A stretch of 64,000 bases of DNA from a virus. Taxonomy: Duplodnaviria > Caudoviricetes. Positions 5,897-46,710 of this stretch are shown piece after piece. Location of the stretch: the IMG/VR virus record IMGVR_UViG_3300020598_000119. One strand, written 5' to 3'. Every line of letters begins with the position of its first letter. Position 1 is the first letter of the stretch. A program made the position numbers and the translations under genes. The notes beneath the pieces were generated by a model. That model ran no database searches. It was not told the origin of the DNA and saw only the letters and a program-made list of their open reading frames with translations.

Positions 5897-5990
5897 TGGT
5901 GCGGACGGCAGGACTTGAACCTGCACGGAGAGTAGCAAGCTCTCCACTGGGACCTGAACCCAGCGTGTCTACCAATTCCACCACGGCCGC
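5897..5990 (-). tRNA. tRNA-Leu(CAG), long variable arm
   Basis: Cloverleaf with anticodon loop TTCAGGT and encoded CCA. Confidence 0.92.
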
Positions 5991-6008
5991 ATATTCTTTG
6001 ATTTGACT

Positions 6009-6092
6009 TGGTGTGGACGGCGGGGATCGAACCCGCACGCACGAAGCGGTGAATTTTAAGTTCACTGCGTCTACCTATTCCGCCACGTCCAC
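6009..6092 (-). tRNA. tRNA-Leu(TAA)
   Basis: Cloverleaf with loop CTTAAAA and CCA. Confidence 0.93.
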
Positions 6093-6158
6093 ATTTTTTA
6101 TTCGGCGGTAAGTAAGAAGAAGATTGATTGGTTGGTGGTGTCTTCTGCAGGCAGTCAG

Positions 6159-6242
6159 TGGTGCGGCTGAGAAGAGTCGAACTTCCACGGGTTGCCCCAC
6201 AGCGACCTCAACGCTGCGTGTCTACCATTCCACCACAGCCGC
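6159..6242 (-). tRNA. tRNA-Leu(GAG)
   Basis: Cloverleaf with loop TTGAGGT and CCA. Confidence 0.93.
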
Positions 6243-6280
6243 ACAGTTCCGCTGATCAACGACGGCGAAGTCACAAGTAT

Positions 6281-6355
6281 TGGAACCGAAGGATGGAGTC
6301 GAACCATCGTCTCTGGAGCCACAATCCAGCGCTCTAACCATTGAGCTACAACGGC
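6281..6355 (-). tRNA. tRNA-His(GTG), no G-1, two U-U mismatches in the acceptor stem
   Basis: Loop TTGTGGC, T arm GATGG-TTCGACT-CCATC, CCA. Confidence 0.85.
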
Positions 6356-6365
6356 AAACAGGCAT

Positions 6366-6509
6366 CGCTAAGTAAAGGGACTCGAACCCTTAACGCAGAA
6401 TCGGTCTGGTTCGTATCTGCCATTGGTTTCTGCCATGAACCAGGGGTATGAATACCCATTCGTGATTGGCTTGACCTCAACGTCGTCTACCACTTCCGAC
6501 ATACTCAGC
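6366..6509 (-). ncRNA. tRNA-like RNA with a large structured insertion
   Basis: Acceptor GCTGAGTA/TACTTAGC, D-arm GTCGGAAGTGGTAGACGAC and T arm AAGGG-TTCGAGT-CCCTT. The middle holds extra hairpins. No CCA. Confidence 0.6.
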
Positions 6510-6542
6510 GAATTTCGATAAGGACCCGAGGCCCTTGAAACT

Positions 6543-6645
6543 TGGTGGCAGAACAGGCACTTGATCTCAGCGGATGATCAATCCGTGATCTTTGACCAGT
6601 ACGCCGACTCCGACGAATGTACCTAGGATACGTCAGGGTCCTGCC
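6543..6645 (-). ncRNA. unknown structured RNA with an acceptor-like stem and ACCA end
   Basis: GGCAGGAC/GTTCTGCC-ACCA closes two internal hairpins; no T-loop. Confidence 0.45.
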
Positions 6646-6652
6646 ATTTAAG

Positions 6653-6729
6653 TGGTCGGAGTGGCAGGCTTCGAACCTGCGACCTATGGTTCCCAAAACC
6701 ATCGCGCTACCAGGCTGCGCTACACTCCG
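6653..6729 (-). tRNA. tRNA-Pro(TGG)
   Basis: Cloverleaf with loop TTTGGGA and CCA. Confidence 0.93.
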
Positions 6730-6794
6730 AATTCTTCATGCACGGGCCGAGCAGCGCCACTGAAGGCAGTAGGTCTCGGCCCGTTAGTTTAACT

Positions 6795-6886
6795 TGGTGG
6801 GGGACGGCTAGAGTTGAACTGCTTGCCGCATAGGGACCCGGTTTACAGCCCGGTGACAGGACCGCCCATCCTTATTGGCGTCCCCC
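6795..6886 (-). tRNA. atypical tRNA-Tyr(GTA)-like, 8-bp acceptor stem
   Basis: GGGGGACG/CGTCCCCC-ACCA, loop CTGTAAA, short bulged T stem and non-canonical D arm. Confidence 0.6.
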
Positions 6887-6891
6887 ATAAA

Positions 6892-7105
6892 TGGTGGAGA
6901 TGACAGGATTTGAACCTGCGCAGACCGTGATGACCTTCGCATTACCAAAGGCTCCCAATTGGTTTGAAACGCGCTTCCCTACTCGGCCCTCTCTGGCTGT
7001 TTCGGTGCATCCGCAAAGACCCCAATCGAGATTTGTCACGTCCCTGTTTTACCAGAGCCGGATTCCGTTTCCCGGTGCCCATGCCGACCTCAGGCGGACA
7101 TCCCC
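6892..7105 (-). ncRNA. 214-nt RNA with a tRNA-Ala/tmRNA-like acceptor and T arm
   Basis: GGGGATG/CATCTCC-ACCA with G3:U70 and A73; T arm GCAGG-TTCAAAT-CCTGT; long structured interior. Confidence 0.55.
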
Positions 7106-7107
7106 AT

Positions 7108-7186
7108 TGGCTTGAACGGCAAGGATTTGAACCTGCGACCTCCTGGACCCATTCCAGGCGCGCTCCCAGACTGCGCTACATTCAAG
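7108..7186 (-). tRNA. degenerate tRNA-Pro-like
   Basis: Pro-type D arm; anticodon loop AATGGGT lacks U33; bulged T stem; CCA. Confidence 0.6.
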
Positions 7187-7406
7187 ACAAACTAGATTTG
7201 ACCAAAACATGGTCAGAAACTTTTGGCACTCACAGCGACGCCAAGGATCATCAGTCGCTGTCTCTCCACGGGAGAGGGATCTTCAGGCTCGTCCACGATC
7301 CGCCGCCTGTTCCTAAAAGTGCCACCGAAACAGCAGCTGGCCAGCCGCCATTCCGCAGGCTTCCTGGGATTGTTCTAGAATTTGCCCAGTATAGCCTTTG
7401 AAGCTG

Positions 7407-7489
7407 TGGTGCGGATGAGAGGAATCGAACCTCCACGGTTGCCCGTCAGAACCTAAATCTGATGCGTCTACCAATTTCGCCACATCCGC
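7407..7489 (-). tRNA. tRNA-Leu(TAG)
   Basis: Cloverleaf with loop TTTAGGT and CCA. Confidence 0.93.
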
Positions 7490-7519
7490 ATATTTCCCAA
7501 AGGGGAAAAGGAAAAATGA

Positions 7520-7596
7520 TGGTCGGAGCAGCAGGACTCGAACCTGCGACCCCCTGATCCCAAATCAGGTGCGCTACCAGACTGCGCTATGCTCCG
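7520..7596 (-). tRNA. tRNA-Pro(TGG)
   Basis: Cloverleaf with loop TTTGGGA and CCA. Confidence 0.94.
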
Positions 7597-7683
7597 TTTT
7601 ATTCAAAAATCATATTTCCATTTCCTCTTCAAGGGGGTCAAATCGAATTTAAAAACTCCATCATCTGACCCCCTTACATAATT

Positions 7684-7766
7684 TGGTACGGCAGAGAGGA
7701 CTCGAACCTCCACGTCAGAGACAATGGATTTTGAATCCACCGCGTCTACCATTCCGCCACTGCCGC
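7684..7766 (-). tRNA. tRNA-Leu(CAA)
   Basis: Cloverleaf with loop TTCAAAA and CCA. Confidence 0.93.
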
Positions 7767-7771
7767 AAACA

Positions 7772-7855
7772 TGGTGTAGGGAGTTGGATTCGAACCAACG
7801 TGGATTGCTCAACGGATTTACAGTCCGCCCCTTTCGGCCTCTCGGGCACCCCTAC
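7772..7855 (-). tRNA. tRNA-Tyr(GTA)
   Basis: Cloverleaf with loop CTGTAAA and CCA. Confidence 0.93.
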
Positions 7856-7938
7856 AATTCCTCGCAAACCAGCTACCAAGAGAATAACGCGGTGACGGCC
7901 ACGGTATTCAAAGCCAGATTGCTCTGTTCTTGCTCACA

Positions 7939-7951
7939 ATTTCAAAGATCA
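7939..7951 (-). promoter_or_regulatory. BoxA-like antitermination site
   Basis: TGATCTTTGAAAT resembles rrn boxA (TGCTCTTTAACA) and lies between the attenuator and the first tRNA. Confidence 0.45.
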
Positions 7952-7990
7952 TTCTGCGGGAGCAGAACCCCCTTTCGGGGAAAAACACGC

Positions 7991-8040
7991 AAAAAAAAAG
8001 AAGAACCCTCGTTAGCGGTCGGCCAGCGAGGGTTCTTCTT
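7991..8040 (-). terminator. attenuator terminator of tRNA array 1
   Basis: AAGAAGAACCCTCGCT...AACGAGGGTTCTTC followed by T9 on the minus strand. Confidence 0.9.
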
Positions 8041-8067
8041 GGTCTGATCGAAGGATTTACTTAAGCG

Positions 8068-8229
8068 TTAAAATCCTTCTTTCGCCAATACAGCCCGCTG
8101 ACCGCAACCCAGATACGGGAGCGGTAACAAATGGGGGGGATGAGGCAGAGCGGAAACGGCACGCGTCAGGGCGACGCGAGCAGAAACTGCCGCAACCTTT
8201 CCCTGTACTGTCTGTGCCGAAGCGTTCAT
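8068..8229 (-). CDS. leader peptide of the Leu/Pro/His/Tyr tRNA array (53 aa)
   Basis: MNASAQTVQGKVAAVSARVALTRAVSALPHPPHLLPLPYLGCGQRAVLAKEGF*, with a GAGGA RBS. Confidence 0.85.
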   Translation of the reverse strand: MNASAQTVQGKVAAVSARVALTRAVSALPHPPHLLPLPYLGCGQRAVLAKEGF

Positions 8230-8274
8230 CGTTCTATCCTCAAAGTTGGCGACTGGAATTCGTCGTGTTGCCTA

Positions 8275-8303
8275 TAGATGAATGACGTCGGCGAAACTGT
8301 CAA
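8275..8303 (-). promoter_or_regulatory. sigma70-type promoter of array 1
   Basis: TTGACA-N17-CATCTA with upstream A-tracts. Confidence 0.75.
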
Positions 8304-8465
8304 TATGATTTTTGCAATTTCTGATTTTTTATTCCGAGGACGTCCGATGCCGATGAATCATCTCTGAGGCGGATGGCCATTGGATGGCAAAAAGGGGCTG
8401 CAAGAAAATTGTTGGTTTCCAGCAACCGCAGGCACTATCATGAAACAAAATATTGGAGTTTTTCG

Positions 8466-9404
8466 ATGGCAATAGATTTACCTACCGCAGCCATGGCGCT
8501 TATCACCGCACTGGAGAGCGTCACTGGTGTTCAGATTGCTATTCTCGAACGTCGTGATGACCCGGCTGAATTCTGGGCCAGAACCGCAGCAATTCTATGT
8601 GATAAAACAAAACAGAATTGGTGCAGTGAGGACGTTCGCTTCATGACGTCCAATACGGAACTGATGGGGATGTCTCATATAATCGAGTACAACTTCGATG
8701 GGAAGGGGACACGTAGGGTATGCGCACTCCTGCCGCCCATTGCGAACATCGATCCCAATTTCATCGCCAATGCATATGGTTCACCGTATCCGACTATCTA
8801 CGATTTGCCATCGAGTGCGGAAACGGCAAGTTGGCTGATGCTGTATCATGCGGCGCACTGCCTCGACACAGCTCTGTCCGACCAGGAAGAAAACCGAGCT
8901 GTCGCCTTTGCGACTCTAGGGCTTTCGTTGATGGGAGGAGACTACAAGTTTCTGCCAGGAAGGGTACGCTCATCTGCTCGCCAGATTGCGGCCATGACAG
9001 GTAAGGCATCTGGATATTGGGCCGCAGGCACTGGCGAACGCATTCTGATGGATCTCTGGAAGACTGAAACTGGGGACAGGCTCCGGCGCGAGTACGGATG
9101 CTATCCAATAGTGAAACAGAGCAGCTCGATTGATATCGAACGGATTGCACGCGATTCACGCATTCCAGAAGGACAAAACTGCGCTGCAGAAGCAGGTGGG
9201 AACGGTGGTGGCATGCGTACGAACCCGCAGGGCACAATCACGGACGCCAACCTGTGGCTTTGGCTATATGGGCCTCAAAGTGGAGGAACGTCATCACCAA
9301 GGCTTGGCGTGCCCCCGAAGGACTACTATCCGTTTAAGACCTTCAAGGACTTCAGCACCGCCGCCTCTTACGTATTAGAGACAGCCAACAAGCTAGCGCA
9401 GTGA
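8466..9404 (+). CDS. hypothetical protein
   Basis: Start at MAIDLP after GGAG; HAAHC motif resembles a degenerate HExxH. Confidence 0.65.
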   Translation: MAIDLPTAAMALITALESVTGVQIAILERRDDPAEFWARTAAILCDKTKQNWCSEDVRFMTSNTELMGMSHIIEYNFDGKGTRRVCALLPPIANIDPNFIANAYGSPYPTIYDLPSSAETASWLMLYHAAHCLDTALSDQEENRAVAFATLGLSLMGGDYKFLPGRVRSSARQIAAMTGKASGYWAAGTGERILMDLWKTETGDRLRREYGCYPIVKQSSSIDIERIARDSRIPEGQNCAAEAGGNGGGMRTNPQGTITDANLWLWLYGPQSGGTSSPRLGVPPKDYYPFKTFKDFSTAASYVLETANKLAQ

Positions 9405-9794: not shown

Positions 9795-9823
9795 TTGACA
9801 CATTCCGCCGTCTAATTCATATC
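9795..9823 (+). promoter_or_regulatory. sigma70-type promoter of array 2
   Basis: TTGACA-N17-CATATC with upstream A-tracts. Confidence 0.75.
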
Positions 9824-9847
9824 TAGGGAAGATCAAGGAGTTTAGAA

Positions 9848-9940
9848 ATGTTCGTTCAGTCGTCCCAACAGCAATCCAGCCAGTCGAGTTCATCAAGCTC
9901 GAACGCGGTGCTGTGCGCGGTGACTGATCCGAAAATCTGA
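9848..9940 (+). CDS. leader peptide of the Ser/Gln tRNA array (30 aa)
   Basis: MFVQSSQQQSSQSSSSSSNAVLCAVTDPKI*, with an AAGGAG RBS. Confidence 0.9.
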   Translation: MFVQSSQQQSSQSSSSSSNAVLCAVTDPKI

Positions 9941-9967
9941 CCTCAATATCAGATCAAAAGGTTTCAG

Positions 9968-9992
9968 AACCCGCCCAAAAGGCGGGTTTTTT
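9968..9992 (+). terminator. attenuator terminator of tRNA array 2
   Basis: AACCCGCC-CAAAA-GGCGGGTTTTTT, 6 nt before the first tRNA. Confidence 0.9.
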
Positions 9993-9998
9993 GTATGC

Positions 9999-46478: not shown

Positions 46479-46507
46479 TTGACAAGTGCTAGCCGACCAT
46501 TCATAAA
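46479..46507 (+). promoter_or_regulatory. sigma70-type promoter of array 3
   Basis: TTGACA-N17-CATAAA with upstream A-tracts. Confidence 0.75.
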
Positions 46508-46558
46508 GGGGACAAGCGATTGGGCGGATGCCCGTCCATTCAACTTTGAGAGAGTACA

Positions 46559-46633
46559 ATGCGCAACACGAGAACGACATGGACATGTTGGAGAACCTAC
46601 AGGGGCTTCCCTGGAGGCGGAGACGTCTGTTGA
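46559..46633 (+). CDS. leader peptide of the Trp/Thr/Cys/Arg tRNA array (24 aa)
   Basis: MRNTRTTWTCWRTYRGFPGGGDVC*, with a GAGAGAG RBS. Confidence 0.88.
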   Translation: MRNTRTTWTCWRTYRGFPGGGDVC

Positions 46634-46660
46634 CTCGTTGAGCGCAGTTACCGCAACCAA

Positions 46661-46694
46661 GAAGCCTCGAATGAAAATTCGGGGCTTTTATTTT
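46661..46694 (+). terminator. attenuator terminator of tRNA array 3
   Basis: AAGCCTCGAA-TGAAAA-TTCGGGGCTTTTATTTT. Confidence 0.88.
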
Positions 46695-46710
46695 GTCTGG
46701 AATTCAGTTT

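Follow-up and report, generated by a model that had tools for sequence, protein, structure and literature searches.

The window analyzed in this study was a 64,000-nucleotide stretch of DNA (64 kb), and its 23 tRNA genes formed three separate arrays across 42 kb. tRNA array 1 was located on the minus strand at 5897-7855. Ten tRNAs were identified there by ARAGORN and Rfam in the order Tyr-GTA, Leu-CAA, Pro-TGG, Leu-TAG, Pro-TGG, Pro-TGG, His-GTG, Leu-GAG, Leu-TAA, and Leu-CAG. The anticodons CAA, TAG, GAG, TAA, and CAG meant that all five Leu isoacceptors were present. This agreed with the first-pass annotation, which had described five Leu isoacceptors together with Pro, His, and Tyr tRNAs. 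With ten tRNAs in 1.96 kb, array 1 lay outside the published definition of a tRNA array unit, which requires 20 or more tRNA genes and a density of no less than 2 per kb (PMC4758250). The middle tRNA-Pro copy (7108-7185, minus strand) had an Rfam score of just 31.8 bits. Its counterpart in the nearest genome, G001, was given the anticodon GGA (Ser) by ARAGORN on a Pro-sized body (locus L008, 1803-1879). The middle copy may be decaying or anticodon-shifted.

A leader region was found on the same strand ahead of array 1, which began 135 nt past the T run of the leader terminator. The predicted promoter P1 (8275-8303, minus strand) was read from the sequence as a -35 element TTGACA at 8303-8298, a 17-nt spacer, and a -10 element CATCTA at 8280-8275. 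In the related loci described below, TTGACA was invariant and was followed 17 nt later by a (C/G)AT(C/T/A)(T/A)A hexamer. A Shine-Dalgarno sequence, GAGGA (8237-8241, minus strand), was located 7 nt ahead of the ATG, and the relatives carried AGGA or AAGG 7-10 nt ahead of the start codon. The leader ORF (8068-8229, minus strand) started with the ATG at 8229 and consisted of 53 codons followed by TAA (8070-8068). The leader ended in an intrinsic terminator (7991-8040, minus strand), a 43-nt hairpin at 8040-7998 with a predicted energy of -27.6 kcal/mol. The last two bases of its stem were shared with the nine-T run that came next (7999-7991). The distance from the promoter to the terminator was about 310 nt. 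P1 and the terminator were taken from the sequence reading and the folds and not from the consensus scan. The scan did not flag P1 because the -10 element ended in A, and it missed the terminator because of a strict rule on the interrupted stem.

The leader ORF contained a control run of 13 Leu/Pro/His/Tyr codons, LPHPPHLLPLPYL, at 8110-8148 on the minus strand, corresponding to ORF codons 28-40. The first-pass annotation had quoted thirteen consecutive codons for these four amino acids with four different Leu codons. The run was found exactly as quoted at 8148-8110, inside the ORF 8229-8068, and its Leu codons were CTG, TTG, TTA, and CTC. Across the six frames of the 64 kb, which gave approximately 128,000 windows, a single 13-codon window was made up entirely of Leu, Pro, His, and Tyr, and the next-best unrelated window reached at most 10. 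The number of such windows expected from the composition of the analyzed DNA itself was about 6e-5. The run had a codon for each of the 8 distinct anticodons of the array, and outside the run only 2 of 39 codons were read by array tRNAs. CCT and the two CCC codons were outside the strict-wobble reach of Pro-UGG and would need four-way reading by a modified U34. Such reading is known for enterobacterial tRNA-Pro. The 27 codons ahead of the run (8149-8229, minus strand) were rich in Ala, Val, Ser, Thr, and Arg, and an A-R-V-A-like stretch in this part of the leader peptide recurred in relatives. This composition could stem from an RNA element (a pause hairpin, for example) or simply from the avoidance of Leu/Pro/His/Tyr codons.

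Folding was performed to examine the RNA encoded by the leader. None of 200 shuffles folded as well as the whole leader, for which the z-scores were -4.3 and -4.7. Region 1 (8117-8153, minus strand) was composed of two strands, 8153-8146 and 8127-8117, located in or just before the run, which paired with region 2. Region 2 (8094-8104, minus strand) was the 5' strand of the antiterminator, CGGTCAGCGGG, and encoded part of the peptide GCGQR. Region 3 (8020-8030, minus strand), CTCGCTGGCCG, was the part of the terminator 5' arm that paired with region 2. In addition, the folding placed a spacer hairpin at 8051-8078 on the minus strand, and this hairpin held the stop codon 8070-8068. The ORF passed through region 2 and stopped in the spacer between regions 2 and 3. 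Pairing of CGGTCAGCGGG with CTCGCTGGCCG gave 11 pairs, including 2 G-U pairs, with -19.2 kcal/mol, or -21.2 kcal/mol with the flanks. The predicted energies were -16.2, -21.2, and -27.6 kcal/mol for the 1:2, 2:3, and 3:4 helices, respectively.

Stepwise folding followed the order in which these regions would leave the polymerase. As long as region 3 was not yet out, region 2 was paired with the run and with 8153-8146. When the 3' end was at 8024-8012, the 2:3 helix was the best fold, and from 8005 onward the terminator was the best fold. On the truncated transcript without a ribosome, 2:3 was more stable than 1:2, and therefore termination in the unstalled case would rest on kinetics or ribosome occupancy. 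The barrier from 1:2 to 2:3 was estimated at 9-13 kcal/mol. By this folding estimate, a kinetic trap could hold for the fraction of a second until region 4 is made.

The conserved protein of 312 amino acids encoded beside the leader (8466-9404, plus strand) was used as the anchor for the retrieval of related loci, because it was independent of the feature tested. In relatives, this protein was located between two divergent attenuated arrays. It contained invariant Cys and His residues and had no match in Pfam, PHROGs, or Atlas. Its AlphaFold model was confident (pLDDT 85) but had no PDB match by Foldseek, and VIA-align gave weak zinc-peptidase-like rows (Z 4-5), the highest Z being 4.9. The anchor had 88 homologues, and the named ones, mostly on contigs of 0.5-2 Mb, were from Rhizobium leguminosarum, Rhizobium sp. 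BK176, Agrobacterium rubi, Sinorhizobium meliloti, Neorhizobium, and R. laguerreae. Thirty loci were fetched. They gave 15 distinct leaders, with anchor protein identities of 44-99%, from Rhizobium leguminosarum (plasmid CP140867.1), Agrobacterium rubi, Pararhizobium sp. BT-229, Mesorhizobium sp. SP-1A, and metagenomes. The leader of the nearest genome, G001, was 98% identical to that of the window and was by itself too similar to be informative.

Each Leu/Pro/His/Tyr array beside the anchor was preceded by an ORF of 52-62 codons with a Shine-Dalgarno sequence, on the strand leading into the array. In the 15 distinct leaders, 9-12 of 12 codons of the run encoded Leu, Pro, His, or Tyr, and the residue order varied between loci. 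The run had a codon for each distinct array anticodon at almost every locus. The N-terminal half of the leader peptide was variable, and nearly all peptides ended in LPLPY-xSGQR. Across relatives, Leu, Pro, His, and Tyr accounted for 178 of 210 residues in the run (85%), 11 of 370 before it, and 17 of 236 after it (3-7%), with a background of about 19%. Ser and Phe, to which other frames of the same pyrimidine-rich tract would give rise, were rare in the run. A composition that was kept while the order drifted, together with the depletion of the same residues elsewhere, is the pattern expected of regulatory codons and not of a folded protein. The depletion outside the run would also be expected of selection against stalling elsewhere in the leader. 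The stop codon was located between regions 2 and 3 in all relatives, and the loop indel among them was in frame. At four loci (L015, L016, L030, and L032), a tRNA-Tyr-like sequence (...gactGTAaatc...) with a long variable arm, uncalled by ARAGORN, was found between the terminator and the first called tRNA. These arrays therefore contain Tyr, like their leaders.

Covariation was analyzed in an alignment of 17 sequences from the run through the terminator. In the antiterminator 2:3, 97.3% of the cells were paired and 4 of the 11 pairs were changed on both sides. None of 500 shuffles gave a value as high, and slid partner columns gave 22-50% without compensation. Examples of compensated antiterminators were GGTCGACGGG facing CCCGTCGACC at locus L011 and GGTCGGCGGG facing CCCGCCGGCC at locus L026. 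When RNAalifold was given the alignment only and no structure, it returned the same 2:3 helix. The terminator stem showed compensatory changes in 11 of 17 pairs. The inner 1:2 hairpin, CCGCTCCC with GGGxGCGG, was located within the LPLPY-xSG codons and was 87% paired, with 3 compensatory pairs. The peptide tail xSGQR was conserved because the covarying antiterminator strand encodes it.

These results allowed the proposed antiterminator geometry to be evaluated. The first-pass annotation had proposed that the strand 3' of the run was complementary to both the 5' arm and the loop of the terminator. The pairing with the 5' arm (8104-8094 with 8030-8020) held and covaried, whereas the loop register was not supported by covariation. 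The loop register, GCGGTC with GACCGC, exists, but it uses the same nucleotides as the 5'-arm pairing and is not the register that relatives conserve. The geometry itself was borne out, as the 2:3 helix excludes the terminator, was 97.3% paired, covaried, and was returned unaided by RNAalifold.

The other two arrays of the window had the same layout as array 1 with unrelated sequences. Array 2 consisted of four Ser and three Gln tRNAs from 9999 on the plus strand, and its leader region was located at 9797-9995. TTGACA, AAGGAG, a 30-codon ORF, and a terminator were found upstream, and the ORF had an unbroken run of 15 Ser/Gln codons. The array 2 leader was conserved in all of the more than 20 related loci, with a hairpin inside the Ser codons and GCGGG facing CCCGC of the terminator. 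Array 3 consisted of Trp, Thr, Thr, Cys, Arg, and Arg tRNAs from 46711, with its leader region at 46481-46695 on the plus strand. Upstream of it, TTGACA, a 24-codon ORF reading RNTRTTWTCWRT, and a terminator were found, and the 5' arm of this terminator was complementary to GGGGCTTC just past the run. In the Ser/Gln array of locus L010, a Ser-sized tRNA with the anticodon TTA (7049-7135) was located where tRNA-Ser-CGA sits elsewhere. ARAGORN called it tRNA-Stop, and it would be ochre-suppressor-like.

The same element in G001 carried seven arrays grouped by amino acid. When upstream regions and amino-acid sets were exchanged in a 7 x 7 swap test of this genome, 6 of 7 upstream regions scored top for the set of their own array. 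The Lys array had a weak K-R-K leader only and failed the swap test. The other four arrays of G001 (L003, L004, L005, and L006) were Phe/Arg, Lys, Glu/Asp, and Asn/Val/Gly/Ala/Met/Ile/Thr arrays with matching small ORFs upstream. In these four, a strongly conserved promoter-like sequence, tttttgttgTTGAC, was located directly ahead of the first tRNA. Their layout is therefore P1, leader, terminator, P2, and tRNAs.

The stretch between the terminator and tRNA-Tyr of array 1 (7939-7980, minus strand) contained two small hairpins at 7980-7968 and 7967-7952, which covaried, and the motif TCTTTGAAAT at 7948-7939. The corresponding TCTTTGA(A/C)AT, about 50 nt past the terminator, was invariant in 7 aligned relatives, with TTGACA in most of them and TTGAAA in the window. 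No conserved -10 element followed this motif among the aligned relatives, and arrays 2 and 3 had no room for a motif of this type. The stretch at 7939-7980 might serve as another promoter, as a weak additional terminator, or in RNA processing. The motif may be a bypass promoter, and so the attenuator may control only the P1-derived part of array transcription.

Based on the above results, we read the leader as a ribosome-mediated (leader-peptide) transcription attenuator that controls P1 transcription into tRNA array 1, with a probability of about 0.8. The first-pass annotation had already named it an attenuator ahead of Leu/Pro/His/Tyr tRNAs, and all of the features that could be computed were present and conserved, with the 1:2 hairpin, which overlaps the run, as a candidate anti-antiterminator. 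Other explanations were weighed against this reading. In one of them, the switch is real but senses general translation status. Read-through would be the default, any ribosome passing region 2 to the stop would impose termination, and the array would rise whenever initiation or elongation is poor, whatever the cause. The thermodynamic preference for 2:3 over 1:2 on the truncated transcript without a ribosome is consistent with this explanation, as is an ORF that runs through region 2 with its stop in the spacer in all relatives. However, it leaves unexplained why the run keeps the amino acids of the array despite a drifting order, why the rest of the peptide is poor in Leu, Pro, His, and Tyr, and why each array has a matching run. 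A general sensor of this kind is therefore improbable.

The leader could also encode an independent small protein with its own terminator. The tRNAs would then be transcribed from the downstream TTGACA-like motif, and the run would match the array only by coincidence. The poorly conserved N-terminus and a run that keeps its composition but not its sequence argue against a protein function. The C-terminal LPLPY-xSGQR is conserved, as such a protein would predict, but xSGQR is encoded by the covarying antiterminator strand, and the RNA constraint explains this conservation. The conserved -35-like TTGA(C/A)A between the terminator and the first tRNA fits a separate tRNA promoter; however, no conserved -10 element follows it, and arrays 2 and 3, which lack the space for an additional promoter, still have matching leaders. 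The expectation of about 6e-5 such runs in 64 kb also counts against this explanation, which is very unlikely. The third explanation is a ribosome-independent RNA switch that binds tRNA or protein in the manner of a T-box, in which the ORF is irrelevant. Helices 2:3 and 3:4 would be conserved whatever sets them. However, the Shine-Dalgarno sequence, the start codon, and the open frame were kept in 15 distinct leaders, the loop indel was in frame, and the Leu/Pro/His/Tyr enrichment was frame-specific, with Ser and Phe rare. No T-box or other Rfam family was found at the gathering threshold, nor at E up to 10. A ribosome-independent switch is very unlikely. As a cause of the run, a pyrimidine-rich structural tract was rejected, since Ser and Phe were rare, His and Tyr were kept, and the runs of the other arrays differed in composition.

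The steps by which the leader-peptide attenuator would work were drawn from sequence, folding, and comparison. RNA polymerase would start at P1, and a ribosome would load on the 53-codon leader. If every codon of the run is decoded fast, the ribosome would stay close behind the polymerase, cross region 2, and reach the stop, which is located in the spacer ahead of region 3. With region 2 either occupied by the ribosome or paired again with region 1 after its passage, the terminator 3:4 would form, and transcription would end at about 7991-7995. A ribosome at the stop codon itself would leave region 2 uncovered, unlike in trp. If any of the eight isoacceptors is short as charged tRNA, the ribosome would stall in the run and cover region 1. 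The free region 2 would capture the 5' arm of the terminator as it emerges, and the polymerase would continue into the ten tRNA genes. The outcome would be a feedback from decoding speed to tRNA supply. Codon-usage mismatch in a host of 65% G+C, amino-acid starvation, and tRNA loss to nucleases are candidates for the physiological trigger.

Multivalent leader-peptide attenuators are known from the enterobacterial amino-acid operons, such as the ilvGMEDA, ilvBN, thr, leu, his, and trp leaders. The theory of multivalent leader-peptide attenuation has also been described (PMC1183508). The leader of array 1 resembled these leaders in its ORF led by a Shine-Dalgarno sequence, the regulatory codon run for several amino acids, the predicted alternative helices 1:2, 2:3, and 3:4, and the terminator before the regulated genes. 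However, the regulated genes here would be those of tRNAs and not of biosynthetic enzymes, and the run samples a codon of each isoacceptor. The ORF of 53 codons is longer than the short ORFs of classical leaders. In trp, the stop is located before region 2, whereas the ORF here crosses region 2 and ends between regions 2 and 3. In addition, this leader is carried on a mobile or accessory replicon of Rhizobiales. In E. coli, the chromosomal pheM leader attenuator controls pheST (phenylalanyl-tRNA synthetase) and senses one amino acid. In both cases, leader-peptide attenuation would tune a component of the translation apparatus via the decoding of cognate codons, but a synthetase is controlled there and tRNA genes here.

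As in T-box riboswitches, transcription attenuation would depend on the condition of a particular tRNA pool. However, T-boxes act by direct binding of uncharged tRNA and do not require an ORF. Neither the window, searched at the gathering threshold, nor 7856-8320, searched at E up to 10, contained a match to the T-box covariance model, and the only Rfam matches at the gathering threshold in the window were tRNAs. Rfam His_leader (RF00514) gave two sub-threshold matches, the stronger one on the wrong strand. The match at 7997-8143 on the minus strand had 19.8 bits against a gathering threshold of 49 and an E of 0.63, and the leader was not assigned to this family. This weak match reflects the shared architecture of a run plus a terminator.

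Array 1 also resembled the tRNA arrays of mobile elements and phages in its clustered accessory tRNA genes, its location on transmissible DNA, and a composition unlike that of the host (PMC4758250, PMC5966550, PMC10264068). Among these papers, tRNA-array surveys describe arrays as transcribed from a common promoter, and the words attenuator, leader, and terminator are absent from two such surveys. In the literature searched, no paper was found on leader-peptide attenuators ahead of tRNA genes. The mechanism itself is known from amino-acid operon leaders and pheM-pheST, and tRNA genes would be a new target for it.

The genome nearest to the window was that of Mesorhizobium sp. SP-1A (G001), in which the same element was located on a 1.19-Mb contig. 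The G+C content of the window was about 50% (50.5%) versus 65.5% in the sampled chromosomal DNA of this host. Leu, Pro, Ser, and Gln codons ending in A or T were two to four times rarer in the sampled chromosome of G001 than in the element. The genes of the window included GyrA, GyrB, a class I ribonucleotide reductase (NrdE-type), a ClpB-like ATPase, and DNA methyltransferases. A blastn search of the locus gave no match against phages and tRNA-sized matches only against plasmids. The element is a very large semi-autonomous, accessory replicon or island of rhizobia.

Tentatively, the seven codon-matched attenuators might constitute a tRNA-on-demand system, in which loss or scarcity of the isoacceptors of a given array would selectively turn on that array. 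Loss could come from tRNA-targeting toxins or defence nucleases that cleave tRNA, and scarcity from a new host short of tRNA for the A/T-ending codons of the element. If this is true, the replicon would keep translating and could change hosts without the constant cost of tRNA overproduction.

Bacterial tRNA genes are regarded as controlled at their promoters, by growth rate and the stringent response, and by gene dosage. An attenuator before tRNA genes, if true, would form a direct loop in which the speed of decoding governs the synthesis of the tRNA cognate to the codon. Its parts are compact and modular, at about 310 nt, and it would offer a sensor for tRNA depletion. Such a sensor bears on the debate on whether the tRNAs of mobile elements and phages serve codon compensation or escape from tRNA-targeting defences (PMC10264068). 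If true, this attenuation would explain how a near-complete tRNA set is tuned on large low-GC replicons inside high-GC hosts.
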